Part shown: positions 1,547-50,171 of the stretch, piece by piece
Position numbering within the stretch: the first letter of the stretch is position 1
Layout of the letters: every line of letters starts with the position of its first letter
Assembly (NCBI GenBank): GCA_965221795.1
Contig: OZ244914.1
Coordinates: 3,548,102 to 3,612,101 of the forward strand
Length of the DNA: 64,000 bases
Source of the DNA: Candidatus Poriferihabitaceae bacterium
Lineage (GTDB): Bacteria > Pseudomonadota > Gammaproteobacteria > Arenicellales > Poriferihabitantaceae
Reading direction: 5' to 3'
Program-made: the position numbers and the translations under genes
The notes under the pieces: model-generated
What the model was told of the DNA's origin: nothing
Databases searched by the model: none
What the model saw: only the letters and a program-made list of their open reading frames with translations

Positions 1547-2634
1547 GAAAAATGTGTCCACTGTGGCAGAACACCGACCGGAAGGTCCTGCATAGGATAT
1601 CCTGATACGAGTTGATGGCCGTCGATTTTTGCCGGGTAGGCCAGCTTGTCTACGGCAAACAGTTCGCGGAATTGAGTTTGACGATGTGCATAGATTTCTT
1701 CCGGTCGGGAAACGGGCTCGAAACAGCAGTCCACTCCATCAAGCACTGTCGACAACTGTCGAAAGGTCAAGTTACCGATTGCTTCCCGGACTTCCTTGAT
1801 CAAGTCAGTTTGCGGTAACGGATCATATTGTCGATTCACCCATTCGGGTTTTTCCATGGCATGGCAGAAGTTCTGCCAAAAACCCGGCTCCAGCGCACCC
1901 AATGTCACGACCCGGCGATCCCTTGTCCGAAAGAAATTGTAACAAGCAGCCTCTCCGGTGAGCAATCTGAGTTCCGGGTTTTGCTTGTCGGTCACGGCGG
2001 TAGCAGGATACTGATAGGACAGTACGGACTCATACAGGGAAACATCCAATCGGGCACCCTTGCCACGCAATGTGCGACGGTATAAGGCGGCGAGGATGAC
2101 GCTGACCGCATTCAACGCACCGCCATGATCAGCCACCAAGGGAAAGGGTGGACTCTCATCATTGCCATAACTGTACATGCCAGCCGCAGCGCAATAATTG
2201 ATGTCATGCCCGGCCATAGAACGCATAGGCCCATCCTGCCCATAACCGGATAGAGAACAATACACCAGTTTGTCATGGAATTGACTCACACCGGAATATC
2301 CCAATCCCAACCGTTCCATTACACCCGGCCGGAAAGATTCCAGCATGACATCAGCATCCGTGATCAGTGGCTGCAGTCGTTCCATGATGCCATCCTCTTT
2401 CAGGTTCAAACGCGCTATCGTTTTGCTCCGATTCAACAGGCAGTATGCCGGCGAATCCGTGCCGGGCGACGCACCGAACATCTTGCGAAGAGGATCCCCT
2501 TGCGGGGGTTCAATCTTGATCACTTCTGCGCCCAGGTCACAAAGCAGTCGGGTTGCATATGGGCCTGGCAAGTATTGACTCAAGTCCAGTACGCGCAAGC
2601 CGTCCAGGGGCGGTTGATCAGAAGGTGTAGCCAT
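1543..2634 (-). CDS. CaiB/BaiF family III CoA-transferase
   Basis: LDGLRVLDLSQYLPGP, GAEVIKIEPPQGDP, ESFRPGVMERLGLG, GHDINY. Confidence 0.93.
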   Translation of the reverse strand: MATPSDQPPLDGLRVLDLSQYLPGPYATRLLCDLGAEVIKIEPPQGDPLRKMFGASPGTDSPAYCLLNRSKTIARLNLKEDGIMERLQPLITDADVMLESFRPGVMERLGLGYSGVSQFHDKLVYCSLSGYGQDGPMRSMAGHDINYCAAAGMYSYGNDESPPFPLVADHGGALNAVSVILAALYRRTLRGKGARLDVSLYESVLSYQYPATAVTDKQNPELRLLTGEAACYNFFRTRDRRVVTLGALEPGFWQNFCHAMEKPEWVNRQYDPLPQTDLIKEVREAIGNLTFRQLSTVLDGVDCCFEPVSRPEEIYAHRQTQFRELFAVDKLAYPAKIDGHQLVSGYPMQDLPVGVLPQWTHFS

Positions 2635-2752
2635 CCAAAATCACCCTATGGTGTTGTATGGCCGCCATGGTCCATCCGAATGCCAATCGCATCAGCATTC
2701 CAGGGGAAGGAAATTTCCTGTCATCCCGAGCCAATCGGCTGCGATTTCGACC

Positions 2753-3985
2753 TCAATAGCTGCGTTTGTCCTCAATGACAATCCCATCATGTGGCAGTGA
2801 ATTCAATGGAACCAGTTCCACCTCCCCTCGGAGTTTGCAAATATCGCGTATGGTCGTCTCGACCGCTTTGGCAAGCTCTTTGGCCAGTTCCTCGCATTCA
2901 CAATGCAATGTCATTTTATCGGCCTGATTCTCGGACTCCACGACCAATCGATAATGCCGGATTTCCGGATGGCGTCTCGTAACCCGATTGACTTGAGACG
3001 GATGCACAAACATTCCACGAACCTTGACTGTTTGATCGGCCCGCCCCATCCACCCTTTGATACGGCGGTTGGTTCTACCACAAGGGCTTTTGCCTGGCAG
3101 AATTGTTGAAAGATCTCCGGTCGCAAAACGAATCAATGGATAATCCGGATTCAGTGCAGTGACCACCACCTCTCCCACTTCCCCATCCGGTAACACATCC
3201 CCTGTTCCCGGAAGCACGATCTCAAGATACACATCTTCGTCGATGATCAGGCCCGACTCTTCTGAAGATTCATAAGCAATCAAGCCCACATCAGCAGTCG
3301 CATAACACTGCAATCCGAAGATACCGCAATCCGCAAACCTTTGCCGCAATGAGGGCAGATAGGCCTCACCACCGACCAGTGCCTTGTTCAAGGACGGTAT
3401 CTGCATGCCGGTCTCCTCGGCTCGTTCCAACAAAATTCGCAAGAAAGAGGGGGTGCCGCAATATGCGTCTGGTTTCAACCGGCAGATGGATTCCAGTTGT
3501 TGTTCGGTATTGCCCACTCCTCCCGGGAGCACGACCGCTTCCAGTTCCCGACAACCAGAATCCAGCATCATGCCGGCTGGTGTGAGATGATAAGAAAATC
3601 CGTTATGCACCCGACTACCTCTTCGGACTCCCGCTGCATAAAGGGCTCTGGCCATACGCCAGTAATTGGGACGGGCGGTCTGGGGTTCGAAAATCGGCCC
3701 CGGAGAGGTAAAGATATGAGTCAGGGGCTCGCCGACCAAGGCATCCAGTCCACCGAACGGTGGCTGCTGTTGCTGTCGCTCCATCAGTTCGGATTTTCTC
3801 GTCAAAGGCAGGGCTGCGAGGTCCGCAAGCTCCTCCAGATCCCCGACGTCCACGTCTTTCAGAATTTCGCGAAACGCCGGGGCATTGGCTTTTGCATGGG
3901 CAATCTGTGCGAGCACATCCCGGGTCAGGATCGCCATGCGTTCATCCCTGGTGCGAGTCTCCCGATCGTCAAAATAGGCCGACAT
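2753..3985 (-). CDS. Phenylacetate-CoA ligase-like AMP-binding protein
   Basis: PaaK-like features: YATADVGLIAYE, YPLIRFATGDLS, GRADQTVKVRGMFVHPSQ; start taken at MSAYFD. Confidence 0.88.
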   Translation of the reverse strand: MSAYFDDRETRTRDERMAILTRDVLAQIAHAKANAPAFREILKDVDVGDLEELADLAALPLTRKSELMERQQQQPPFGGLDALVGEPLTHIFTSPGPIFEPQTARPNYWRMARALYAAGVRRGSRVHNGFSYHLTPAGMMLDSGCRELEAVVLPGGVGNTEQQLESICRLKPDAYCGTPSFLRILLERAEETGMQIPSLNKALVGGEAYLPSLRQRFADCGIFGLQCYATADVGLIAYESSEESGLIIDEDVYLEIVLPGTGDVLPDGEVGEVVVTALNPDYPLIRFATGDLSTILPGKSPCGRTNRRIKGWMGRADQTVKVRGMFVHPSQVNRVTRRHPEIRHYRLVVESENQADKMTLHCECEELAKELAKAVETTIRDICKLRGEVELVPLNSLPHDGIVIEDKRSY

Positions 3986-4068
3986 CGATTCTGTTGATGG
4001 GATTCGATACTTTGAAAGCAATGGCTTTTGTTGATGCGGCAGATATCATTCGCGTCCAGGAACCCGGT

Positions 4069-4881
4069 TCAGGCCAGCCAGCGCTTCCGACGGCGATAAT
4101 GCTTGACGTCACGAAAGCTCCGGCGACCATTGCCACTCATGCCGAGATAGAATTCCTTCACGTCTTCATTTTGTGCCAGGGAACTGGCATCCCCATCCAT
4201 CACCACGCGACCATTTTCCAGGATGTAGCCATAGGTAGCATAACGGAGCGCAACCGTCGTGTTCTGTTCTGCCAACAGGAAAGTCACCCTTTCCCTTTCG
4301 TTCAGCGCACGGACAATTTCGAAGATTTCCTCCACCAATTGAGGCGCTAATCCCATCGAGGGTTCATCCAGCAGGATCACGCTCGGCTTGGCCATTAATG
4401 CCCGGCCCACGGCAATCATCTGTTGCTCCCCTCCCGAGGTATATCCAGCCTGGCTCCGGTACCGCTCCTTGAGACGGGGAAAGTAACTGTAAACGAGCTC
4501 CAGGTCATTTTGCAGTCCTTTCCGACCGACCTTGCGGGTATAGGCACCAGTCAACAGGTTCTCTTCCACCGTCAGATGTTCGAAACAATGACGCCCCTCC
4601 ATGACCTGAACCACCCCACGCTTGACTAATTCATTGGGAGAAAGCGAATCCACTTTTTCGCCAAGAAATTCGATGGATCCTTTCGTCACTTCCCCTCGCT
4701 CCGTTCCCAGAATGTTGGATATCGACTTGATGGTAGTGGTTTTTCCGGCACCATTCGCCCCCAGCAATGCCACCACTCCGCCTTTCGGTACTTCCAGCGA
4801 CACTCCCTTCAACACCAGAATGACATGGTCATAAATAACCTCGATATTGTTGACACGAAGGACAATATCGGCACTATTCAT
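4069..4881 (-). CDS. ABC transporter ATP-binding protein, LivF-like
   Basis: GANGAGKTT Walker A, SGGEQQM signature, LLDEPSMGLAP. Confidence 0.93.
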   Translation of the reverse strand: MNSADIVLRVNNIEVIYDHVILVLKGVSLEVPKGGVVALLGANGAGKTTTIKSISNILGTERGEVTKGSIEFLGEKVDSLSPNELVKRGVVQVMEGRHCFEHLTVEENLLTGAYTRKVGRKGLQNDLELVYSYFPRLKERYRSQAGYTSGGEQQMIAVGRALMAKPSVILLDEPSMGLAPQLVEEIFEIVRALNERERVTFLLAEQNTTVALRYATYGYILENGRVVMDGDASSLAQNEDVKEFYLGMSGNGRRSFRDVKHYRRRKRWLA

Positions 4882-4915
4882 TGCGGTGGTGCAATCTCAG
4901 GGATATATCGGAAGT

Positions 4916-4945
4916 TCGGGCGACCCGGAGAAATGGGTCGCCCGA
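4916..4945 (-). terminator. Perfect 11-bp hairpin after the substrate-binding protein gene (mRNA stabiliser or partial terminator)
   Basis: TCGGGCGACCC-N8-GGGTCGCCCGA, 20 bp downstream of the SBP stop; no long U-tract. Confidence 0.6.
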
Positions 4946-4964
4946 TCAAGCCGTCAATTGGTGA

Positions 4965-6257
4965 TCAACAATCACGTGGAGTGATGTTATTTTCCTGCGC
5001 ATAGGCAGCGGAATCCGCTTCGATCAGCGTATCCACCACATCACGGTCTGCGCCGGTGAAGCCCGTAATGAGAGACCAGGACTGGGTATCGGCATCCCAT
5101 TGCTGGATCGCCGCTTCTCCAGGTCCTCCATGATTGGCGCAAGTCACACTGATACTGGGACCGAAGTTGGGCAAGCCAAGCTCCGCCATTCGGTCCTGAT
5201 TGATCTGCAAGGCTTCCAGCCCATCGCGCATTTGAACTGGTGTGATATCTGCTACCCCATGGATCGTCTGGGCAGTACGTGCCGCTTCCGACGCCAGAAC
5301 GGCCGCATAGAGCCCCCGGTTATAGAGTACGGTACCGAGATTGCTGCCGTCCCCAGCAGCCTTGCCCGCATCCACCACGTATTTCTTCAGGTCCGCATAG
5401 ATGGGAAAATCACTGCCCACATTGTGAAAATTGATCGCCTTGTATCCATCGGCTCCTGGACCTGCCGGAATCACATCGTTCTCCGAAGCCGACCACCATA
5501 CTCCAATGAAGTGATCCATGGGATAGCGAATGTTGGCCGCTTCCTGAATCGCTACCTGATTCATCACGCCCCATCCCCACATCAACACATAATCCGGTCG
5601 TTCGCGACGAATCTGCAGCCACTGGGACTTTTGCTCCTGCCCCGGATGGTCCACGGGCAATAATGTCAGGCTGAAGCCATGCTTCTTCGACAGTTCTTCC
5701 AGCGTACGGATGGGCTCTTTGCCATAGGCAGAATTATGGTATACCAATGCCAGTGTTTTCCCACTAAGGTCTCCATTTTCTTCATCCAGGATATGCTTGA
5801 CAATGATGGATGCGGCATCCCAGTACGTGCCGGGGAAATTGAAAATATAACTGAATACTCTGCCATTTGCGGCTGAAGTGCGCCCATAGCCCATGGACAG
5901 GACGGGAATCCCATCGGCCGTCGCTTTGGGAATCAACTGGTAGGTAATCCCGGTCGATAGCGGCTGGTAGACCAGAGACCCCCGCCCTTTGGTGGACTCA
6001 TAGCATTCCACACCCTTCTCGGTGTTATATCCGGTTTCACATTCGATCAGATTCACAGGTACGCCGCCGATCCCCCCGTCACGCTCATTCAACAAGGTAA
6101 AATAATCCGCATACCCGTCCGCATATGGGATGCCATTGGGTGCATATGGCCCCGTCCGGTAACTAAGTGATGGGAACGTCAGGTCCGCGTACGCGACCCC
6201 GCTGCCCCACACCACGGTAGCTGCCAATATGGCAGCAGTGATTGGGTTGAATTTCAT
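4965..6257 (-). CDS. ABC transporter substrate-binding protein (Liv/PBP1 type)
   Basis: Signal peptide MKFNPITAAILAATVVWGSGVAYA; YRTGPYAPNG and NERDGGIGGV motifs; position in the ABC operon. Confidence 0.9.
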   Translation of the reverse strand: MKFNPITAAILAATVVWGSGVAYADLTFPSLSYRTGPYAPNGIPYADGYADYFTLLNERDGGIGGVPVNLIECETGYNTEKGVECYESTKGRGSLVYQPLSTGITYQLIPKATADGIPVLSMGYGRTSAANGRVFSYIFNFPGTYWDAASIIVKHILDEENGDLSGKTLALVYHNSAYGKEPIRTLEELSKKHGFSLTLLPVDHPGQEQKSQWLQIRRERPDYVLMWGWGVMNQVAIQEAANIRYPMDHFIGVWWSASENDVIPAGPGADGYKAINFHNVGSDFPIYADLKKYVVDAGKAAGDGSNLGTVLYNRGLYAAVLASEAARTAQTIHGVADITPVQMRDGLEALQINQDRMAELGLPNFGPSISVTCANHGGPGEAAIQQWDADTQSWSLITGFTGADRDVVDTLIEADSAAYAQENNITPRDC

Positions 6258-6289: not shown

Positions 6290-7366
6290 TCAATGCGGAA
6301 AGGGCCATAGCCGCAGTTTCTCCTTGGCAACTCGCCACAACTGCGCAAGACCATGGGGTTCCACGATCAGGAAAAACATGATCAGGCCGCCGACCAGCAT
6401 CAAAATAAAGTGCTGCACCATATCCGTAGGCCAGCCAAAACTGCCGACCATGATATTTTTGAATAGTACCGGTAAAAGCACCATAAACGCAGCGCCAATG
6501 AATGAACCGGCCACGGAGCCCAGCCCACCAATAATGATCATAAACAGGACCAGAAAAGATTTATCAATGCCAAACGCTTCCGTGGGTTCGATCGCGCCCA
6601 GGTACACGCCAAAAAACAATGCGCCGGCCAGACCAATGTAAAATGAACTGATCGCAAACGCCAGAAGTTTGGTCTTCAATGGAGGCACGCCAATGATCTC
6701 GGCCGCAATGTCCATATCCCGAATCGCCATCCAGGAACGTCCCAGCCGTCCACGGGTCAAATTTCGTGCGATCATAGCAAAGACCAGCACGAACAGAAGG
6801 GTGAACAAATAGGTGGACCAAGGCTCGGCTTGAGGACCGGAAACAATCATGCCGAACAATTCGCGTTCTGGCATATTGATCTGTCCCGAGGCGGAATAGT
6901 TATAAAACCAGGGAACCTTGTTGAACAGCCACACCAGAAAAAATTGGGCGGCCAGGGTCGCCACAGCCAAATAAAAACCCTTGATGCGCAAACTCGGCAA
7001 ACCGAACAGGATCCCGACAATGGCCGTCACCCCTCCAGAGAACAAGATCACAAACAGGATATTGAGGTCGGGGAAAGCGGTGGTGATTTTGTAGCAGGCG
7101 TATGCGCCCACAGCCATGAATCCCCCCGTACCCAGACTGAGTTGACCACAATATCCGGTCAGGATGTTCAACCCCAGGGCTGCCAAGGACCAGATCAGGA
7201 ATGGCAACAGGATCGACTTTTCCCAATAGTCATTAATGAGAAACGGGACCACCAGGAAAGCAACCAATACCAATGCCCGTACGGACCAGCGATCAAAGGC
7301 GATGGGGAACGTCTGCTGATCTGCAGCATAACTGGTCTTGAAATCCCCTGCTTCCCGGTAAAACAT
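6290..7366 (-). CDS. ABC permease, LivM-like
   Basis: GLNILTGYCGQLSLG, LRIKGFYLAVATLA, IIGGLGS; hydrophobic. Confidence 0.92.
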   Translation of the reverse strand: MFYREAGDFKTSYAADQQTFPIAFDRWSVRALVLVAFLVVPFLINDYWEKSILLPFLIWSLAALGLNILTGYCGQLSLGTGGFMAVGAYACYKITTAFPDLNILFVILFSGGVTAIVGILFGLPSLRIKGFYLAVATLAAQFFLVWLFNKVPWFYNYSASGQINMPERELFGMIVSGPQAEPWSTYLFTLLFVLVFAMIARNLTRGRLGRSWMAIRDMDIAAEIIGVPPLKTKLLAFAISSFYIGLAGALFFGVYLGAIEPTEAFGIDKSFLVLFMIIIGGLGSVAGSFIGAAFMVLLPVLFKNIMVGSFGWPTDMVQHFILMLVGGLIMFFLIVEPHGLAQLWRVAKEKLRLWPFPH

Positions 7367-7372
7367 CTATAC

Positions 7373-8374
7373 CTATACCCTCTCAATGATGCGTTCACCA
7401 AACAGTCCCTGGGGGCGGAACATCAGGAAGAACAGTGCCAACACATAGGCAAACCAATTTTCCGTTGCTCCCCCAATCAGAGGGCCGACCGTAAACTCAA
7501 ACAGTTTTTCTCCCACACCGATCAGCAACCCCCCGACAATCGCTCCCGGAATGGAAGTAAATCCTCCCAGAATCAGGACCGGCAAGGCCTTGAGCGCAAT
7601 CAGGGAAAGCGAGAACTGAACACCGGACTTGGCCCCCCACATGATTCCGGCGACGAGAGCGACGAATCCCGCGATCGACCACACTACCACCCAAATGGTC
7701 CGGAGTGAAATACCCACCGTCAGGGCTGCCTGATGATCATCTGCAACCGCTCGCAGTGCGCGACCGGTCTTGGTAACCTGGGAAAATACGGTCAACACGA
7801 TCACCAGGACTACCGCAATGGCAGCCGCCCATACATCCAGGACGTCAATATACATTCCATAATATTCGGTTCCTTCCGCGGCCCAAGTCCGGGTGACATC
7901 TTCCCACCAGAAGGAGCCACCGGACGGGAGTCCCACATCCAGCACCTTGATGTTGGCACCCCACATCAGGTCTCCCAACCCTTCCAGGAAGAATGCTAGT
8001 CCGATGGTGGCCATGAACAGGATGATGGGTTCCTGGTTGACGAGGAATCGGAGCACCGCTTTTTCCACCAACCAGGCGAGCAAGATCATCACCAGGATGG
8101 TGAGAACAATCGCCAAAGCGGTATTCATGCCATTCCCCCAATGGTGATAATCCGTCCCGAAAATGACATTGATCAGATGTGCGAATGGGATCTGGCCCGT
8201 CTGGAAACCGACCAGGGTCAGGGCAGCAAACAGGCACATCACACCCTGGGCATAATTGAAAATGGCAGACGCCTTGAAAATCAACACGAAGCCCAGCGCG
8301 ACCAGGGAATACATCACACCGGCCATCAGTCCGTTCAGAATGACCTCAATGGTATACAGTGTGGTCGGGTTCAT
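7373..8374 (-). CDS. ABC permease, LivH-like
   Basis: NGLMAGVMYSLVALGFVLIFKAS, GRALRAVADD, RPQGLFG. Confidence 0.92.
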   Translation of the reverse strand: MNPTTLYTIEVILNGLMAGVMYSLVALGFVLIFKASAIFNYAQGVMCLFAALTLVGFQTGQIPFAHLINVIFGTDYHHWGNGMNTALAIVLTILVMILLAWLVEKAVLRFLVNQEPIILFMATIGLAFFLEGLGDLMWGANIKVLDVGLPSGGSFWWEDVTRTWAAEGTEYYGMYIDVLDVWAAAIAVVLVIVLTVFSQVTKTGRALRAVADDHQAALTVGISLRTIWVVVWSIAGFVALVAGIMWGAKSGVQFSLSLIALKALPVLILGGFTSIPGAIVGGLLIGVGEKLFEFTVGPLIGGATENWFAYVLALFFLMFRPQGLFGERIIERV

Positions 8375-8377
8375 GTT

Positions 8378-9169
8378 TCAGTCGTGGGCGACCCCAAGGT
8401 AGGCATCAATGACGTTCTGATCATTGCGAATTTTATCCGGCAAGCCGTCACCGATTTTTCTTCCATAGTCAAGAACCACCACGCGGTCTGCAATATCCAT
8501 GACCACACCCATATCATGCTCGATCAGGGCAATAGTCGTGCCGAAATGCTCGTGCACGTCCAATACAAAGCGGCACATATCTTCCTTTTCCTCCAGGTTC
8601 ATGCCAGCCATCGGCTCATCCAGCAACAAAAGCTTGGATTCTGCGGCCAGCGCACGGCCCAATTCCACCCGCTTTTGCAACCCATAGGGCAATTTTCCGA
8701 CCGGGGTCTTTCGAATCGATTGGATTTCCAGAAAATCGATAATCTGCTCTACTCGCTCCCGATGGGCAAGCTCTTCCTTCTCGGCCTTGCCTTTCCAAAT
8801 TGCCTGCCAAAAGACGTTCTCATGCATGTGAATGATACGCCCAGTCATCAAATTATCGAGCGTACTCATGCCTTTGAACAGGGCAATATTCTGAAATGTA
8901 CGCGCAATCCCCTGACGCGCAATCTGATGGGGTTTGAGAGAACGACGCAAGGTGCCATCAAACCATACTTCCCCTTTTTGCGGATGGTAAAACCCATTGA
9001 TCACATTGAGCATGGAGCTTTTGCCTGCACCATTGGGCCCAATGATCGCCCGGATCTCTCCATGGAGAATGTCAAAACTGATGTCCACCAGTGCCTTGAC
9101 CCCGCCAAAGGATAACGAAATCTCCCGCAAGTCCAACAAGACTCCGTTCGACTGGCTGGCTTGACTCAT
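8378..9169 (-). CDS. ABC transporter ATP-binding protein, LivG-like
   Basis: GPNGAGKSS, GIARTFQN, LPYGLQKRVELGRALA, LLDEP, IEHDM. Confidence 0.93.
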   Translation of the reverse strand: MSQASQSNGVLLDLREISLSFGGVKALVDISFDILHGEIRAIIGPNGAGKSSMLNVINGFYHPQKGEVWFDGTLRRSLKPHQIARQGIARTFQNIALFKGMSTLDNLMTGRIIHMHENVFWQAIWKGKAEKEELAHRERVEQIIDFLEIQSIRKTPVGKLPYGLQKRVELGRALAAESKLLLLDEPMAGMNLEEKEDMCRFVLDVHEHFGTTIALIEHDMGVVMDIADRVVVLDYGRKIGDGLPDKIRNDQNVIDAYLGVAHD

Positions 9170-41215: not shown

Positions 41216-42363
41216 ATTACCCCGGCTTCGTGCCCGAGATTATTGAAGGTCTCGGGTTTCTTGATTCCCAGCATCCGAAATGCATCCCGATAGAGCGTCT
41301 GACCTTCAAGCGTACTCACGACCAATGCACGGGCAAATCGACGTCCGACCCGCAGGATCGTTGTGCGATAGAAATCACCACCGTCGCTGCCCGCTTGGGT
41401 CGGCTCTTGCAGACGGTTACTCTCTTGCGCCCATGCGGTGTCAAATCTCGCACGAGTCAGCCAATCTGCATCAAGCAAGCGGCGCAGGATGACCCATGTG
41501 CTGACCTTGAAAATCCGTGCCAGTCGCAATAGGGCATCGGCGAGAGGCTCGGTTGGGTGTAAATATGTGCGCAAGGCATCCAACGGTACCAGCAGCTCGG
41601 CGGCCACCGCGTTGCACCACACTTCCTCCTGGCAAAATCCCGAATTCGGCGCGGGCCCAGGATTCGACAAGGAGGAGGTGCCGAGCCAGATATGCGCCAA
41701 CTCATGCGCCAGCGTGAACATCTGTGCCGCCTTCGTGTCCTTGCCGTTGACGAAGATCAGCGGCGCGAGTGGATCGCACAGTGCGAAACCGCGAAACTCG
41801 GCGGGGTCGAGACCACGTTTGGTGTTGCTCATTACGATACCGCTCACCATGACGAGAACGCCGGCCTCGTCGACCCGGCGAATGAATAGCCGCAGGGCCT
41901 CGGTCCAGGTAGAACATCCCCGGCGGGCAGCTACATCGAACCCCAGGGTATCCCGTATCCTTGAGGCGATGAATTCCGGGGGCCTGTGGACGGAGGCGCT
42001 GCCGACGAACCCAAGATCCGAATCGCCAGCGACACGGGCAAAACCCCGATACCAGCTTTGCCACTCCTGACAAGCATAGATTGTGTCCAGCAGATTCGGG
42101 CTGGGTCGCATCACCTTATTCCCGGAGAAAGTCCGAAAGTCAGGAATCGGGACAGTTTCATCTGGGGGTTCCGAGAGAAACAGGTAACCGACCGGTGCAT
42201 GGACAGCACGGGCGAATGCTTCCGCTTGCTTCAGGGTGGGGGTCGCTTTCCCGTCTTCCCATTCAGCCAGTTTCTTGAACTTTTTCACCAGATCTTCCTG
42301 AGAGACCCCTGCGCGTTCGCGGGCCCAGCGGAGAAGGTCTGGATTGACGGGGGCTTCGATCAT
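41212..42363 (-). CDS. XRE-HTH plus ImmA/IrrE (M78) metallopeptidase
   Basis: NPDLLRWARERAG HTH, PDFRT, FRGFAL, FTLAHELAH (HExxH), EVWCNAVAAELL. Confidence 0.92.
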   Translation of the reverse strand: MIEAPVNPDLLRWARERAGVSQEDLVKKFKKLAEWEDGKATPTLKQAEAFARAVHAPVGYLFLSEPPDETVPIPDFRTFSGNKVMRPSPNLLDTIYACQEWQSWYRGFARVAGDSDLGFVGSASVHRPPEFIASRIRDTLGFDVAARRGCSTWTEALRLFIRRVDEAGVLVMVSGIVMSNTKRGLDPAEFRGFALCDPLAPLIFVNGKDTKAAQMFTLAHELAHIWLGTSSLSNPGPAPNSGFCQEEVWCNAVAAELLVPLDALRTYLHPTEPLADALLRLARIFKVSTWVILRRLLDADWLTRARFDTAWAQESNRLQEPTQAGSDGGDFYRTTILRVGRRFARALVVSTLEGQTLYRDAFRMLGIKKPETFNNLGHEAGVI

Positions 42364-43943
42364 GCTACGGCCTCGACCATTTTTCCGGCATCTCGCAGGC
42401 GGATTTCGCCGGACATGAGTTTCGGTAAAAGAAGGTCACGGGTCCGAGCGAGGGTGCGAGACTCAAAAATATTCTTTCTGATATGTTCATCAAGAGGCGC
42501 GGCTTGGTTCTCGAAGAGAGCAACAAACTCTTGTGCCGGCTCCAGGATACTCAGGGCTTCGAACTGCTTTTTGTTGATTGCTCCAAATACCGTTCCGGTA
42601 TGTTCGTACTGCTTCAACTTTTGTTGTACTGCCCACGCTGAGTAGTAGGTGAACGACCGTGACCCGGAAACATGACGGAGAACGGCAACACCTCGTCCAA
42701 TACAGCATTTGTCCCACGCCATGTTAATGTCACCAACCGGTGCCCGAACGCTCACAAGCGTATCATCGCGCTCTGCAATTCTGGTCGGGACGGTACAGTA
42801 TTTGCGATTCTTTGGATATCGAAACCCGAAATCTGTCCGTCCCTGGAAAAAAGGCAACCCTTCTCCGTTCTCGTTATAAGTTCTCCCTGGAGGCGACTGC
42901 CCCATGGTTAAACGGAAACAATCACCAACCGTTCCAACTCGCCACCCAACTGGCTTGTCTTCGTCGTCCAGCCTATCGGGGAACCGCTCCCAAAGTTCCG
43001 GGGCCAAATATGGAGCTCGGCCTTCTACCTTGGCCCGCACCGGCCCGAACTCCACAAACCAGTCCCGGAAAATCGCCCGGGCCATCGCCTCCAGCGTCTC
43101 GTTCATCCGGCGGTTGCCTTCGATCTTGTCGTCCAACGTGCCCAGAATGTGGGCGATCGCACGTTGCTCCGGTATCGGGGGGAGAGGTATATTGATATGG
43201 TTGAAAGATTCAGTTGGAACTCGTTGACGCCCAGAAGTACCGGTCATCTGACCGACTGCATATTCCCGTATTAAATCCCATTGGGTCAGATAGTAGGAAA
43301 AATTATTATCCGTAACATTAGGGCGTCCACGAATAACGATGAATTCTGTAGAGCCATGTGCGAGTAGCACCCGCTGTGAGGCATGGTAGCGTGCGATTTT
43401 CCCATTCTCTAGGCAAGGTGTTATTCTCGCCATGAGAGTGTCACCGTCATGGAATCGAGATCCTCCACCCTTGAATTCACGCTCTGTATCGGCATAAGCG
43501 AATTTTGAATTTGGGTTAACAGCCACCATATCAACATAGGGATAATTTTGGCCTTGATTAAGCTCTACTTTCGGGTTGATCTGAATAGCTTGACTGAACG
43601 GAATTTCTTGCCAGTTTTCTTGTATCGAAATCTTTTCTGTGAAAAAAAGCACATGACTCTCTACGATTTCATCCCGAAATGATTCAGGCACTTCATCCCA
43701 AACAAATAAATCCACCCTGAAAGGGAGGTCACTTTCCTCCAGCGCTTCACGAAGGTTGCCAACTTGGTAGGCTTGTTTGGGCTTAGCAAATACCACTAAA
43801 TCAAGGTCGGATTGTGGCCGTGATGTCCACTTCGCCCTAGATCCATACACCCAGACTGTAATTCCCGGAAGATGCCGGTGAAGCAGCGTCAGAATCATTT
43901 CATGCTGCTCGGGAGTTACGTCGATGGGACTGACTACTCCCAT
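42360..43943 (-). CDS. hsdS: Type I R-M specificity subunit with an N-terminal fused minimal nucleotidyltransferase (MNT) domain
   Basis: aa 1-~105: VWVYGSRAKWTSRPQSDLDL (GSx10DxD) and LPFRVDL; then TRD1 (ARITPCLENGK), spacer PPIPEQRAIAHILGTLDDKIE, TRD2, RDLLLPKLMSGE. Confidence 0.93.
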   Translation of the reverse strand: MGVVSPIDVTPEQHEMILTLLHRHLPGITVWVYGSRAKWTSRPQSDLDLVVFAKPKQAYQVGNLREALEESDLPFRVDLFVWDEVPESFRDEIVESHVLFFTEKISIQENWQEIPFSQAIQINPKVELNQGQNYPYVDMVAVNPNSKFAYADTEREFKGGGSRFHDGDTLMARITPCLENGKIARYHASQRVLLAHGSTEFIVIRGRPNVTDNNFSYYLTQWDLIREYAVGQMTGTSGRQRVPTESFNHINIPLPPIPEQRAIAHILGTLDDKIEGNRRMNETLEAMARAIFRDWFVEFGPVRAKVEGRAPYLAPELWERFPDRLDDEDKPVGWRVGTVGDCFRLTMGQSPPGRTYNENGEGLPFFQGRTDFGFRYPKNRKYCTVPTRIAERDDTLVSVRAPVGDINMAWDKCCIGRGVAVLRHVSGSRSFTYYSAWAVQQKLKQYEHTGTVFGAINKKQFEALSILEPAQEFVALFENQAAPLDEHIRKNIFESRTLARTRDLLLPKLMSGEIRLRDAGKMVEAVA

Positions 43944-44350
43944 GTTGAAGCAGTCATTGTCTGATAGAGACCGATAGCATCATCAATAAAGCCGGGCATC
44001 AACTCCAGGCAAACTGTAGCTTTTTCTCCATCGTAGTCGTGAGACGTGTTAGTCCGTGCATTCGCATACTCCATCCATTGCTTCAGTGGTGACGCGAGCA
44101 AGCCATTTTCATGAGCCAGTCGGAATATGGGCTTAGGGCTATTTGGCGGCTCGGCAATCCCCAGCCCCTCAGACAGATATCTCTTGAGAGCTTTCCACAA
44201 GCAGTCATAGCAGGTCTCGAAGCGCTGTATGACGGACTCGGAAACCCCCTCACGAGTCAGGACCGAAAGGTCATCTTCTAGGCTCTGGTGGTTTTCGTGC
44301 TGTTCCTCCAAGCGTTTGAGGGATAACTGGAATTTGCTGTAGTCGATCAT
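43934..44350 (-). CDS. HEPN-domain protein (HI0074/nucleotidyltransferase substrate-binding family), predicted RNase toxin
   Basis: ESVIQRFETCYDCLWKALKRYL, SPKPIFRLA, RTNTSHDY = RX4HXY; 10-bp overlap with MNT-hsdS. Confidence 0.88.
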   Translation of the reverse strand: MIDYSKFQLSLKRLEEQHENHQSLEDDLSVLTREGVSESVIQRFETCYDCLWKALKRYLSEGLGIAEPPNSPKPIFRLAHENGLLASPLKQWMEYANARTNTSHDYDGEKATVCLELMPGFIDDAIGLYQTMTASTWE

Positions 44351-44373
44351 GCTTCCTATAGAACGGATTGCTG

Positions 44374-44625
44374 TCAGTTGGATGTTCGATGAAGTGCCAG
44401 AACTTCCGTGATTGTCTCTGCCTCCTCCCGGGATGCTGATGGAAAATCATGTAGGTTCCTATGCCAACCCTCCCATTGGTTTATGCCGGTATTCAATGTC
44501 ACGGGAACGACGGAAATCTGTTCTGGTGACAGGTTGTCATAGCCTTGTTCATATCCACTGACAACTACCCGCATATCTTCAGGATAGGTTCTCAAGAGAT
44601 CAATTATCGCTCGAATAGTCATCAT
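44374..44625 (-). CDS. Small hypothetical protein coupled to hsdM
   Basis: 83-aa ORF with 4-bp overlap on the hsdM stop; protein-like composition ([20 protein letters not shown]). Confidence 0.6.
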
Positions 44626-46529: not shown

Positions 46530-48086
46530 TCATGCAGCCACCAGAATGGGGAATTTCTTCCGGATCCTTTCATCCACAGCAGATTCGATAAAACAAGGCA
46601 GGTACTCGGTCAGGATTTCATTCGTGATTGTGCGGCTTCGTTCAAACAGATCGATCGACCCTTGTTGCTCCCAGGCATCAGGAGGGTCACGTGAAACCAG
46701 AACAGGCTCGGGATACAGGTATTCTGATTCCATGAACTCCATCGTCTGGGAATGGCCGAGAAAGTGCCCCGGATGAATCACCGATTCACGGATCACTTCC
46801 ACCGACAGTGTCTCGTCACTGACTTCGATGCCACGGGTTGCCCGAAGAACCATACCCAGAATTTCATTATCGATCACCAGGGATTCGAAACTGCAACCCA
46901 TCAGGCTTCCCATCATGCCCGCTGCCTCACAAACGCGATTGGCCCCGGCCATAGCCGCCAATACGAGAGTAATCCCCTTCTCGAAACCATGCTGGGCATC
47001 GGGTACTTTGGAGTCCGTCATCCCGGCCGCCACGGAATTGGGTAAATCATAATACGAACCCATCTGCACAGCGGCTGCAGAAAGCAAAGCTTCCTCACCA
47101 CTGCCGCCGGAAAAAGATCCGGTTCGCAAGTCTGTAACAAAAGGCCATGCCGCAAAGGTCATCGGACAACCAGGCCGAATCAAATTCACCACTGCCAAAC
47201 AAGCCAGGGTTTCAGCAATGACCTGGGCCAATATGCCGGCCAGCGGAGCAGGTGCGGTGGCACCACTCTGGGGAGCGACTGCCAAATCACTGGTGAGACC
47301 CAATCGGCTGGCTTCCATCATGACTTCCAGGTTCGACCGGCCGAAACGCAAGGGCGAAACAATTGGACAACCCCCAAAAATAGCAAATGGTTCCTTGGCA
47401 AATCGCCCTTCCCCACCGAGTACCATATCGAACATTTCCAGAGCTGGGCGAACACTGGTCGCCCGACGAAAAGCGAAGCAAAGCGGCTTTTCCGTACCCC
47501 GAATCATGGCATAAGGCACATTGATGTCATGTTCGAAGTCATCGGTAACATCGGTCGGTACGACCGTTGCCCCGATCATATGGATATTGTCCAGTTTGTC
47601 ACTCAGGCGGGTGAAGTCATAGATGTCCTGCAAAGTCGACGCACGATAGCGCCGAGTGGCAGGGTCAAAAGTAGTCACCGCAGACCCCGAAGTCGCGAAG
47701 TAGACCCGGGAACCGCTACACTCCATATCGTCCCGGCCCCTCCGGGCACCCCGGGCATGCACCACAAAATCACGTGCTGCATTGGCGATGAGATCGTCTA
47801 CCATTCCTTTCGGAAAACATAATCGCCCATGCTCATTCAGGAAGCAGCCCTGATGCAGTACTTCCTTGAGTAATTCCGGGATCGGGTCACCGATCCCAAT
47901 GGTCTCCAGAATCTCGAGGGCGGCTTGATGGATCCGACCCATATCAGAATCGCTCAGCGGCTGGTAGCGGCCACTGTGCATGCCCGGCCAAATGGCAGGT
48001 GACTGGGAGTCCGCCTGGCGCTTGGCACGTCGAACCTGGCGCCCTCCTGCACGACCGGTAGCCCGCTTTGCCTTGGCAGTTTTCAT
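46530..48086 (-). CDS. MttB-superfamily methyltransferase, pyrrolysine-free (paralogue 2)
   Basis: IHQAALEILETIG, QSGATAPAPLAG, TDLRTGSFSGGSGE, GMTDSKVPDAQ, PGHFLG. Confidence 0.92.
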   Translation of the reverse strand: MKTAKAKRATGRAGGRQVRRAKRQADSQSPAIWPGMHSGRYQPLSDSDMGRIHQAALEILETIGIGDPIPELLKEVLHQGCFLNEHGRLCFPKGMVDDLIANAARDFVVHARGARRGRDDMECSGSRVYFATSGSAVTTFDPATRRYRASTLQDIYDFTRLSDKLDNIHMIGATVVPTDVTDDFEHDINVPYAMIRGTEKPLCFAFRRATSVRPALEMFDMVLGGEGRFAKEPFAIFGGCPIVSPLRFGRSNLEVMMEASRLGLTSDLAVAPQSGATAPAPLAGILAQVIAETLACLAVVNLIRPGCPMTFAAWPFVTDLRTGSFSGGSGEEALLSAAAVQMGSYYDLPNSVAAGMTDSKVPDAQHGFEKGITLVLAAMAGANRVCEAAGMMGSLMGCSFESLVIDNEILGMVLRATRGIEVSDETLSVEVIRESVIHPGHFLGHSQTMEFMESEYLYPEPVLVSRDPPDAWEQQGSIDLFERSRTITNEILTEYLPCFIESAVDERIRKKFPILVAA

Positions 48087-48104
48087 ATGAATCAGGAATG
48101 GAAG

Positions 48105-50171
48105 CTACAGAATGGGGAGTTCCCTTTGGTACATTTCGGATTCGACTTCTTCGGGGGCACGTCGAAAATTGCGAGCGGCCAGATGCCCATCAAAAACCGC
48201 ATCGGCGATGAGTCCGGGAGCCAGCATATCACCAACCCGCTGCAGGGTATGCAGTTCGAGGCGATCATTTTCTATTTGCGCAAGTAGAGCAGAAAAGAGT
48301 GCATCGCACGGGGACCGTTCCGTGACCAAAACCAATGTCCCACATGCATGATGCCGTCCTTGACCACCATACAGACAGGCAGAAAAGACACTACCATTGG
48401 CTCCATGGACCAGTCGTCGACTGGTCTCGATATGGACTCCAAGGGAAACCAGCCGACTTTGTATCCGGGCCTGTTCAAGAGTGTAGTGGGTCCAGGGCGA
48501 TACCACGCTGGCTGGCGTAATCAAGGCTACTTCATCCGCCACTTCCACGAGAAACTCTGCCAGCACACCAGCCAGATAGCATTGGTCATCATCATAGACA
48601 ATGACCGGTTTTTGGATTGGATGCCGACCTGCAAAAAGATCGTCTGGGGTCAGAATATCAATCGAGTCATCAATGGGAAGAGGATGACGGGAAGTGCGCC
48701 CGACTCCATCTCTTCTCCACTGCGCTCCGGTAGCCAGAAAGATATCGGGAATTTCCAGTTCCGATATGGTGTCCACCGTCATCTCACTGTTCCGGTAAAT
48801 CTCAACATTTGTCATCCGTTCCAGTTGACCGACCCGATAGTCCCGAACCCGTTTCCAGGCCGAAAGCCCCGGCAAAGTCGATTCTGCCTGCACCCGACCT
48901 CCCAGGTCGTTACGGGCCTCGGCCAGAATCACTTCACACCCCCGGTTCCCCAGTTGCAGTGCGCACTCCAGCCCTGCCGGACCAGCACCCACTACCAGCA
49001 CCGGTGTGGGTGCCTGTACCGGAGCAATCGACTCTGGATGCCAATTTCTCCTCCACTCCTCGCCCATGGTGGGATTTTGGGTACAACGAATGGGGACACC
49101 ATGGCTGTCACTGGAGACACAGATGTTGCAACCAATGCATTCCCGGATCTCCTCAATACGTTGCTCCTTGATCTTGTTGGGCAAGAATGGGTCGGAGATG
49201 GATGGCCTGGCCGCACCGATAAAATCCAGCACCCCCCGGCGAACCAGGGAAACCATATGATCCGGTGAAGTATAGCGCCCTACTCCTACTACTGGCTTGG
49301 ACGTGACCTGCTTCACGAATGCTGTATACACTTCCTGTGCTCCCTCATTGGGTTCGAACCGGGATGTAATCGAGTCATTTTCCCAACCAGCCACGTTCAC
49401 ATCCCAAAGATCAGGCAACTCCGCCAGCATCTCCACGATCGCACGGCCCTCCTCCTGCGCCTGCAGGCCATCCGTACCGGCCATGTCATCCACTGCAAAA
49501 CGAAACGCAATGGCACACTCTCCAGCTGCTTCTTCCTGTGCGTCCAGAAGCAATTCACGGGTCAAGCGTACCCGATTTTCGAGGCATCCACCGTATTCGT
49601 CACTGCGCTGGTTGAAATAGGGGTTGATAAAATGATGTGCCATAGACATGTGATGTCCGGCGTAGACATACACGATGTCGAAATCGGCCTGCTTCGCCAG
49701 GCGGACCGCCTGACGGTGCCAGGATCGCAAATTGGCAAGATCGCGCTTGTCCATGCCCTTGGCCTGTTTAGGATACAGTGTACTGACACTCATCGAAACG
49801 GGTGCCAGGGATGGCATGCGGGTATACAGATTGGGCGCGTGGAACCCATTGTGAACCAATTCGATAGCCGCCAGGGAACCATACTGATGCACCCCGTCCG
49901 CCATCAGATGTAGAGCTGGCAGATCTCGCTGGTCCCAGATGCGTTGTTCCGCGAACGGAGAAAGATCCGACGTAGGGTGAATCTCGGCTTCTTCCGTACT
50001 GACCACGGCCCAACCACCCGCCGCCTTCATTGCTCTCATGGCAGCTTGTCCTCGAGGTTTGATATGACCAAAGCCACAACAATGAGGTACCTGATAAAAC
50101 CGATTTCTGGCTGTTACCGGTCCGATGCTGACCGACTCGAACAAAATCTCATATGCGTGGGAGGCAGTCAT
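48105..50171 (-). CDS. Trimethylamine/dimethylamine/histamine dehydrogenase-like flavoprotein (FMN, 4Fe-4S)
   Basis: NRFYQVPHC (cysteinyl-FMN site), RSDEYGGCLENR, ECIGCNIC..C, VGAGPAGLE. Confidence 0.88.
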   Translation of the reverse strand: MTASHAYEILFESVSIGPVTARNRFYQVPHCCGFGHIKPRGQAAMRAMKAAGGWAVVSTEEAEIHPTSDLSPFAEQRIWDQRDLPALHLMADGVHQYGSLAAIELVHNGFHAPNLYTRMPSLAPVSMSVSTLYPKQAKGMDKRDLANLRSWHRQAVRLAKQADFDIVYVYAGHHMSMAHHFINPYFNQRSDEYGGCLENRVRLTRELLLDAQEEAAGECAIAFRFAVDDMAGTDGLQAQEEGRAIVEMLAELPDLWDVNVAGWENDSITSRFEPNEGAQEVYTAFVKQVTSKPVVGVGRYTSPDHMVSLVRRGVLDFIGAARPSISDPFLPNKIKEQRIEEIRECIGCNICVSSDSHGVPIRCTQNPTMGEEWRRNWHPESIAPVQAPTPVLVVGAGPAGLECALQLGNRGCEVILAEARNDLGGRVQAESTLPGLSAWKRVRDYRVGQLERMTNVEIYRNSEMTVDTISELEIPDIFLATGAQWRRDGVGRTSRHPLPIDDSIDILTPDDLFAGRHPIQKPVIVYDDDQCYLAGVLAEFLVEVADEVALITPASVVSPWTHYTLEQARIQSRLVSLGVHIETSRRLVHGANGSVFSACLYGGQGRHHACGTLVLVTERSPCDALFSALLAQIENDRLELHTLQRVGDMLAPGLIADAVFDGHLAARNFRRAPEEVESEMYQRELPIL

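Follow-up and report, generated by a model that had tools for sequence, protein, structure and literature searches.

Type I restriction-modification (R-M) systems and pairs of a HEPN ribonuclease (RNase) with a minimal nucleotidyltransferase (MNT) are each among the commonest defence or conflict modules of prokaryotes. To our knowledge, the recruitment of second-line effectors by R-M operons is understood in mechanistic detail for essentially one case, PrrC. In the HepT/MntA pair of Shewanella, the GSX10DXD enzyme MntA polyadenylylates the tyrosine of the RX4HXY motif, a modification needed for neutralisation according to the accessible part of that report (PMC7641770). In Legionella, the HEPN protein is AMPylated and a tetramer of it is bound by a single MNT, with a labile MNT or low ATP being proposed to release the toxin (PMC11586414, accessible part). 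R-M-linked HEPN genes were proposed as PrrC-like back-ups in 2013, and the HEPN domains that accompany R-M in the accessible text of that paper are fused to nucleases, helicases and ATPases, and not to methylases (PMC3710099). In this work we analyse a stretch of 64,000 nucleotides from a Candidatus Poriferihabitaceae bacterium (contig OZ244914.1, positions 3,548,102 to 3,612,101 of the forward strand; hereafter the window), in which an MNT domain forms the N-terminus of HsdS, the specificity (S) subunit of a type I R-M system (i.e., an MNT::HsdS fusion), next to a separate HEPN gene. The fusion is real, widespread and apparently unstudied, its parts (type I R-M and HEPN-MNT) being already known.

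The region is likely to be a single, tightly packed type I R-M operon with a built-in toxin-antitoxin (TA) pair of the HI0073/HI0074 type. By the open reading frame (ORF) calls in the window, the minus strand carries every relevant gene, closely packed and overlapping by a few bases, in the order hsdM - orf83 - HEPN - MNT::hsdS - HTH/M78 - DUF4411 (frameshifted) - hsdR (Table 1). Four bp are shared by the hsdM stop and the orf83 start, by the hsdS stop and the start of the HTH/M78 gene (HTH, helix-turn-helix), and by the DUF4411 stop and the hsdR start, so that the fused subunit is co-encoded with hsdM and hsdR on one strand, as befits a genuine HsdS.

Pfam reads the 527-residue protein as Polbeta (PF18765, residues 28-103), NTP_transf_2 and Methylase_S, the last in two stretches, and neither a stop nor a frameshift separates MNT from the first target recognition domain (TRD1). 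Its AlphaFold2 (AF2) model, built with 68 homologues as input (mean predicted local distance difference test score, pLDDT, 88.8; predicted TM-score, pTM, 0.75), has an alpha/beta MNT domain that spans residues 10-101, a linker of low confidence (101-111; pLDDT 60 for the block 101-110), and then two beta-rich TRDs with two long helices (257-297 and 471-511), which is the make-up of a two-TRD HsdS. In Foldseek the HsdS body matches 3okg, 5ybb and 1yf2 at E values of 1e-21 to 1e-26, and the MNT fold matches HI0073 (1no5_B; TMt 0.84, root-mean-square deviation 1.8, 38% identity) as well as the antitoxins 8xeh_E (TMt 0.80), 8xeo and 6m6v; by sequence, HI0073 (1no5) is found at E 5.5e-17. The active-site residues G34, S35, D46 and D48 and the third carboxylate, D78, are invariant in 68 fusion proteins, in whose alignment a variable linker precedes the conserved W.E..LG start of TRD1. 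By its NCBIfam score (below), the MNT domain is a relative, and no equivalog, of MntA, and lies nearer to HI0073. The original prediction had described an intact HEPN gene with the motif RTNTSHDY, overlapping by 10 bp a 527-aa ORF whose MNT domain of about 105 aa, with GSx10DxD, runs on into a complete two-TRD HsdS; its coordinates and motif were correct, and Pfam, AF2 and Foldseek agree on the architecture.

Independent contigs bear on whether this ORF is genuine. Those of runs X1 and X4 do not differ from the window at all, their source sample being possibly the same. In a contig of X6 (1389 nt, from another study and labelled as another organism), the stretch 43156..44513 is present with 16 substitutions and 0 gaps, and both the MNT/TRD1 junction and the HEPN/MNT overlap are crossed without indels, which excludes a stop or frameshift between MNT and TRD1 in the reads, an outcome named at the outset as one that would speak against the prediction. 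With the architecture recurring in more than 1000 protein clusters as well, far beyond what chance would give, an assembly or frameshift artefact is rejected. In X6 the TRD2 stretch (42444..42942) is swapped for 527 other letters, HEPN, MNT and TRD1 being about 99% identical; this replacement is a natural specificity swap, i.e., ordinary TRD shuffling behind a conserved front end. Protein P0002 (530 aa, 98% identical over residues 1-125) is consistent with the same swap.

The HEPN protein is 138 aa long and carries a single Pfam domain, PF08780 (NTase_sub_bind, 76.1 bits against a cut-off of 31.8), and no sensor domain. The nearest PDB entries in a sequence search are 1wwp, 1wty, 1jog (HI0074) and the AMPylated Legionella HEPN 8xdj, the closest solved relatives by name being TTHA0636, TTHA0048 and HI0074. 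PF08780 is matched by all 40 aligned HEPN neighbours, and among 46 related HEPNs the RX4HXY motif retains its R in 44, its H in 43 and its Y in 42. Because the catalytic residues are conserved in these 46 HEPNs and in the 68 fusions, it can be argued that the RNase and the nucleotidyltransferase are both working. PrrC and RloC have an N-terminal ABC-ATPase domain that the window HEPN lacks; it is therefore no member of the PrrC family, and only the logic may be alike.

The linkage of the two genes was followed in both directions, locus counts referring throughout to the best 80 loci per scan. In the forward test, an alignment of the 68 fusions led to 80 genome loci, in which fused and plain HsdS are mixed, and the six-frame ORFs of these loci were searched with hidden Markov models (HMMs) iterated from the window proteins. 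A fused ORF is present in 41 of the loci (42 ORFs altogether), and HEPN ends at most 45 nt from MNT in 39 of the 42, i.e., in 38 of 41 loci; in the same search, a HEPN is absent from all 31 loci whose HsdS is plain and which lack an MNT. Nine loci (e.g., L026, L027, L035, L073 and L078) have the HEPN end at position 7010 and the start of the fusion ORF at 7001. Thus, the check proposed with the original prediction, that an HI0074-type HEPN gene consistently adjoins proteins with NTP_transf plus Methylase_S, came out in its favour, and the opposite outcome, fusions that usually lack a HEPN neighbour, is excluded. The fused arrangement is spread across more than 15 phyla (Poribacteria, Latescibacterota, Acidobacteriota, Spirochaetota, Chloroflexota, Binatota, Pseudomonadota, WWE3, Rhodothermota, Thermodesulfobacteriota, Actinomycetota, Zixiibacteriota, Nitrospinota, Nitrospirota, Verrucomicrobiota and Kiritimatiellota).

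The reverse test started from the window-like HEPN clade (A4, 15 sequences) and led, by a metagenome scan, to another 80 loci. MNT follows HEPN in all 79 of these with room for it. Fifty are fused in one frame, three are split (a free MNT, then HsdS), three seem to be broken fusions, and 12 have a free MNT without HsdS next to it, ten of them being also without an upstream hsdM; in the other 12 the contig ends before the state can be told. The fused form is therefore found in 50 of the 68 resolvable metagenome loci.

The same picture emerges from protein searches. Residues 1-125 of the fusion, compared with proteins of 289-923 aa, gave 1177 matches at E<=1e-3 from 1278 candidates, and PF01420 (Methylase_S) is present in 119 of 120 among the matches listed. 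Residues 1-112, compared with 1.84 billion representatives and with no length filter, gave 3149 matches at E<=1e-3, of the best 150 of which 88 are at least 450 aa long; lengths of 300-449 aa account for another 22, those of 161-299 aa for 23 and those of at most 160 aa for 17. Short MNT relatives number 653 at E<=1e-3, a figure that overstates free MNTs, because many of them carry tails past the MNT and some of the tails match HsdS (74 of 120 among the matches listed have a tail of more than 25 residues, and 16 of these 74 match HsdS). The fused form is the commonest state of this MNT clade. It also occurs in a cultured host, Zymomonas mobilis ATCC 10988, on whose plasmid pZMOB01 HEPN (3-392), the fused S subunit (389-1972, 527 aa) and hsdR (1969-5154) follow each other. 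The PADLOC 'Specificity_I' model PDLC03138 aligns to fusion residues 7-514 and takes in the MNT domain, so that the fused form sits, unrecognised, inside defence-annotation profiles; the NCBI name of one fused protein is simply 'restriction endonuclease subunit S'. Larger variants exist too: four proteins of 760-843 aa (P0005, P0008, P0077 and P0090) have MNT::HsdS plus DUF559/Vsr-like or MTES-type endonuclease domains (PF04480, PF18741), and in P0163 (265 aa) an MNT is joined to the C-terminal domain of HsdR (PF11867).

The best reading of the locus is, by analogy with the studied pairs, that of a type VII-like HEPN/MNT TA pair whose antitoxin is the N-terminal domain of HsdS, and in which silencing of the RNase probably depends on the supply of S subunit. 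As in the Shewanella and Legionella pairs, from which this mechanism is inferred, the MNT on the S subunit would use ATP to AMPylate Tyr106 of HEPN, beside the R99/H104 RNase site, and may in addition bind HEPN, the RNase being kept off. A low-abundance protein such as HsdS can carry this antitoxin because the antitoxin is an enzyme. The 10-bp overlap of stop and start suggests that the translation of HsdS is coupled to that of HEPN. Were hsdS or the whole operon lost or disrupted, or host expression shut off, newly made HEPN would be left unmodified, and this could result in addiction to the R-M operon, in an abortive-infection back-up behind restriction, or in both. The route to such a fusion is simple. 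Free pairs of this family already run HEPN then MNT (L031, L048, Z. mobilis pZA1001 and the metagenome loci), whereas MNT usually lies 5' of HEPN in such modules (PMC3710099, accessible part), and a cassette inserted between hsdM and hsdS had to lose no more than the MNT stop codon to become a fusion.

A number of points weigh against such a reading. Three fused loci have no adjacent HEPN: in L045 it is gone, orf83 being retained and hsdS apparently disrupted; in L052 hsdM is decayed and other genes lie upstream of the fusion; and in L066 hsdM directly abuts a divergent fusion. Neither protein reaches the cut-off of the nearest named NCBIfam subfamily, the HEPN scoring 48.6 against 55.8 bits for TIGR01987 (the HI0074 subfamily) and the MNT 43.2 against 60 bits for NF047752 (MntA). 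The AMPylation experiments concern PF01909/PF01934 pairs and the Legionella pair, not an HI0073/HI0074-type pair within an R-M operon, and no biochemical or genetic test of any MNT::HsdS fusion was found in the literature searched. The release trigger is conjecture, because the re-activation of a covalently AMPylated toxin is unexplained even in the studied systems. The co-fold of MNT (1-112) with HEPN scored 0.32 (0.32, 0.03 and 0.47 in its runs) against 0.01 for the best control, with runs agreeing in at least 75% of contacts and a partner pLDDT of at least 86. Of 80 solved complexes, 58 reach the mark, as do 2 of 110 mismatched pairs, and passes at 0.60 or below comprise only 7 of the 80 solved complexes, plus both passing mismatches; the backing that it gives to an MNT-HEPN complex is weak, and the pass may be memory, since like complexes have been solved. 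Finally, the same HEPN clade is accompanied by a free MNT, with no hsd genes, in ten metagenome loci, and intact split operons of the form hsdM-HEPN-MNT-hsdS are found in L009, in L020 (where the overlap is 4 bp) and on plasmids of Acetobacter. Because such autonomous and split pairs exist, the tether is not obligatory, and we argue that it is favoured, not required, for the pair to function. What the original prediction had proposed holds in part: the TA identity and the conserved linkage are supported, from the conserved catalytic residues and the HEPN adjacency, and the guard function that it inferred is a less probable reading (below).

A bolder interpretation, to which we would give a rather low chance, is that the type I enzyme itself acts as the antitoxin, with the RNase coupled to the R-M complex's state of assembly and unleashed by phage interference or by loss of the complex. 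HEPN would then lie latent on the enzyme through the MNT of HsdS, in a PrrC-like manner, until an anti-restriction factor disturbs the complex and causes abortive infection; DNA mimics (Ocr, ArdA) or a Stp-like peptide might, at similarly long odds, disturb M2S1 or R2M2S1 in a way that leaves HEPN released or unmodified. Such a guard would fit the position of the module, which in most loci is flanked by hsdM and hsdS (of the 59 metagenome loci having at least 900 nt upstream, 42 have an hsdM no more than 1.5 kb upstream, and an HsdM match is present in 38 of the 41 fused genome loci), as well as the fusion being the majority state, apparently arisen or kept repeatedly. It also has a precedent in PrrC/EcoprrI, and the idea of HEPN as a second line behind R-M is published (PMC3710099, accessible part). 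However, nothing in this analysis supports a contact of HEPN with HsdM or HsdR or a response to anti-restriction, the window HEPN has no sensor domain, free and split pairs of this clade do without the tether, and a covalent AMPylation is not obviously reversed by disturbing a complex.

A somewhat less probable explanation is a neutral one, in which a selfish HEPN-MNT cassette landed between hsdM and hsdS, at a hot spot known for such inserts, and lost its MNT stop codon without gaining any function beyond that of an ordinary TA pair; the fusion would have been kept, improbable as we consider this too, by descent and horizontal spread. The operon behaves as accessory DNA, as a hitch-hiker would: full-length fused matches were found in 2 of the 30 relatives searched (G011 and G029), the G+C content of hsdR and hsdM is 0.60-0.62 against 0.45-0.56 in the flanks, and plasmid copies exist (Acetobacter, Z. 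mobilis pZMOB01). Autonomous pairs of the same clade exist, and fused and unfused states are interspersed on the MNT tree. This tree (56 domains, 101 columns) keeps every MNT match of more than 80 residues; many of its forks are unresolved, and its use here is limited to the count of changes and one deep supported split. It has 9 changes of state, at least 6 of them forced by well-supported branches, its rows labelled 'notfused' including a truncated fusion (L008_2696) and second pairs; two deep MNT clades, with a long supported branch between them (97/92), contain fusions each, which is consistent with repeated fusion, the state having changed several times. It is this recurrence in two deeply separated clades that tells against a neutral hitch-hiker, together with the dominance of the fused state (88 of the best 150 representatives are at least 450 aa long; see also the metagenome counts above) and the linker, which in 68 diverse proteins with repeatedly exchanged TRDs makes a clean joint to the natural HsdS N-terminus, TRD2 being swapped even in the closest relative.

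Some loci depart from the simple arrangement. L003 (6276-8533) has a 615-aa ORF with a tandem MNT-MNT-HsdS, one MNT from each deep clade, and its upstream HEPN, with Leu for the motif His (RNLLSLTY), may be inactive. L008, a metagenome-assembled genome of Spirochaetia, has three HEPN + MNT::HsdS units within 15 kb (2696-3559, 7001-8677 and 13835-15478), one of them truncated (287 aa), and in one unit the HsdM and HEPN matches share a 673-aa frame, which reflects a frameshift in the assembly or else one more fusion. Some fused loci (L024:6210-7010, L031:5595-6567, L048:5785-6575, L014:6109-6594) have another HEPN (and MNT) unit just upstream, that of L024 being a single 266-aa MNT-HEPN fusion.

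The weakest alternative, that HEPN is no toxin but the substrate-binding subunit of a two-protein nucleotidyltransferase, as in the original reading of HI0073/HI0074, is very improbable, and so is the suggestion that its target is an R-M subunit, DNA or a phage protein through which restriction is regulated: Pfam and NCBI family names do reflect this older view and HEPN domains fused to nucleotidyltransferases are often regulatory, but regulatory HEPNs typically lose the RNase residues (both in the accessible part of PMC3710099), whereas R, H and the acceptor Tyr are each retained in 42-44 of 46 HEPNs here, and related pairs are experimentally toxin-antitoxin.

Table 1. Features of the R-M operon, in window coordinates
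Feature	Position	Strand	Basis
hsdM, type I methyltransferase subunit, 530 aa	44622..46214	-	PF02384 N6_Mtase 345 bits + PF12161 HsdM_N
orf83, conserved 83-aa protein without a known family, encoded between hsdM and HEPN	44374..44625	-	
HEPN RNase gene, HI0074 / NTase_sub_bind type, 138 aa, presumed toxin	43934..44350	-	PF08780
RNase motif R99-x4-H104-x-Y106 (RTNTSHDY) with presumed AMP-acceptor Tyr	44033..44056	-	Read from sequence
10-bp overlap of HEPN stop (TAG) with ATG of MNT::hsdS, ATGGGAGTAG	43934..43943	-	
MNT::hsdS fusion ORF, 527 aa	42360..43943	-	Polbeta, NTP_transf_2, Methylase_S
MNT domain, fusion residues 1-105, presumed antitoxin enzyme	43629..43943	-	PF18765, HI0073 similarity
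MNT catalytic motif G34-S35-x10-D46-L-D48, GSRAKWTSRPQSDLD	43800..43844	-	Read from sequence
Variable linker of ~11 residues (101-111), MNT to natural HsdS N-terminus	43611..43643	-	Low pLDDT
HsdS body: TRD1 ~112-256, central helix 257-297, TRD2 ~335-470, C-terminal helix 471-511	42360..43610	-	
HTH + Peptidase_M78 (ImmA/IrrE) protein, RmrA-like, 383 aa	41212..42363	-	PF06114, HTH_31; PADLOC RmrA 6.9e-16
DUF4411 (PIN-like) gene, in two frames	40705..41215	-	PF14367
hsdR, type I restriction subunit, 1059 aa	37529..40708	-	HSDR_N, SWI2_SNF2, ResIII, T1RH-like_C

Besides the HEPN and MNT, the operon holds three further genes that are not hsd genes (Table 1). No match to orf83 was found in Pfam, NCBIfam, PADLOC or PHROGs, and its nearest Atlas clusters are unnamed and mostly viral, at 0.93. 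Its homologues occur in 9 of the 80 genome loci (eight with the fusion, plus L016), in none of the 31 plain HsdS loci and in 8 of the 80 metagenome loci; their alignment has 18 invariant columns, and the AF2 model (pLDDT 52) is unusable. The protein may be a third component of the MNT module. The HTH/M78 gene follows the fused hsdS in 5 of the 41 fused loci (L015, L033, L035, L071 and L073) and in none of the 39 others, DUF4411 coming next in all of these five except L033, and the seven-gene order of the window is repeated in L015 (Binatia) and L073 (Alphaproteobacteria). The HTH/M78 gene (RmrA-like, RosmerTA-type) and DUF4411 are a second TA-like insert in the same operon. In the window, two ORFs match PF14367, at profile positions 1-44 and 40-159, and a tblastn search with the intact 175-aa copies of L071 and L015 places the switch of frame near 41075-41097; this apparent frameshift is either a real pseudogene or a sequencing error.

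Just past hsdR, in a stretch of low G+C content (0.45-0.48), are a Fic/DOC-family protein (34801..36192, plus strand) and a DUF2806 protein (36484..37803, minus strand), which look like a small defence island together with the operon. No tRNA genes were found in the window. Beside the island, within 46530..50171 on the minus strand, Pfam identifies an MttB-family trimethylamine methyltransferase homologue, and the adjacent 688-aa ORF resembles, from its sequence, a flavin/NAD oxidoreductase; both appear to be ordinary host metabolism genes.

In line with the statement in the original prediction that no functional description of the fusion was known, none was found in our full-text literature searches, a scope that left out supplements and most subscription journals. 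The main text of PMC3710099 has 0 occurrences of 'HsdS', 'specificity subunit' and 'HI0074', although its Additional file 1 could list the architecture, and the fusion is not described in PMC3632139, PMC4621449 or PMC12839542 as looked up. A published deletion of hsdSp in Z. mobilis ZM4 (PMC8432527), considered as a possible test, is irrelevant, since the hsdR-hsdM-hsdS set of pZM32 is a plain one, its S subunit being 420 aa long and a HEPN gene being absent.

What the arrangement means depends on the tether. An enzymatic antitoxin lies physically within the specificity subunit in more than 1000 protein clusters that are annotated simply as subunit S, and it could link DNA-level and RNA-level phage defence. 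If the tether does couple the control of the RNase to the R-M complex, the locus offers a compact, testable model both of layered immunity and of the way in which type I systems, as a rule not addictive, come to resist loss. Should the type I enzyme itself be the antitoxin, doubtful as this is, it would be an integrated restriction-plus-abortive-infection machine, selected repeatedly (i.e., with fusions in the two deep MNT clades) across more than 15 phyla. If the coupling is false, there is still a recurrent route of fusion, and a systematic blind spot of annotation.

Set beside the described systems, the locus shares something with each of them and coincides with none. As in PrrC-EcoprrI, the gene of a HEPN RNase is embedded in a set of hsd genes and the notion of a back-up at the RNA level applies (PMC3710099, accessible part); PrrC, however, possesses a sensor domain of the ABC-ATPase kind and is kept silent through its binding to the R-M enzyme (type Ic), whereas the window has a bare 138-aa HEPN whose presumed silencer is an enzymatic domain grafted on HsdS. 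In the R-M-associated cases of PMC3710099 the fused domain is the HEPN; in the window the antitoxin takes that place, and its partner is the specificity subunit. The likeness to HepT/MntA (SO_3166/SO_3165) lies in an RX4HXY HEPN beside a GSX10DXD MNT with a third Asp, from which AMPylation of the Tyr would be expected by analogy. Unlike that pair (PF01934/PF01909), the one in the window belongs to PF08780/PF18765, has the HEPN first and has its antitoxin fused to HsdS. The Legionella HEPN-MNT pair (8XDJ, 8XEH) is a free two-gene module, in the text on which 'restriction' occurs 0 times (PMC11586414); its sequence similarity to the window pair is weak (E 0.016 for HEPN and 0.023 for MNT), the MNT fold matching at TMt 0.80, and its one MNT per HEPN tetramer fits one MNT per HsdS. 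In FhepTA, a fused MNT-HEPN described in 2026 (PMC13000451), a type VII antitoxin is likewise covalently joined to another protein, and the partner determines its stability. That paper has 0 occurrences of 'restriction' and of 'HsdS' in its text, and the MNT of FhepTA is fused to its own toxin, whereas that of the window is fused to a third party, HsdS, the toxin being a separate gene. The closest solved relatives of both halves are HI0073 and HI0074 of Haemophilus influenzae (1no5 and 1jog). HI0074 aligns to the window HEPN at E 3.8e-6, with RNITSHTY placed on RTNTSHDY, and HI0073 is a free MNT of about 114 aa, whereas the MNT of the window is the N-terminal domain of a 527-aa HsdS in a type I R-M operon.

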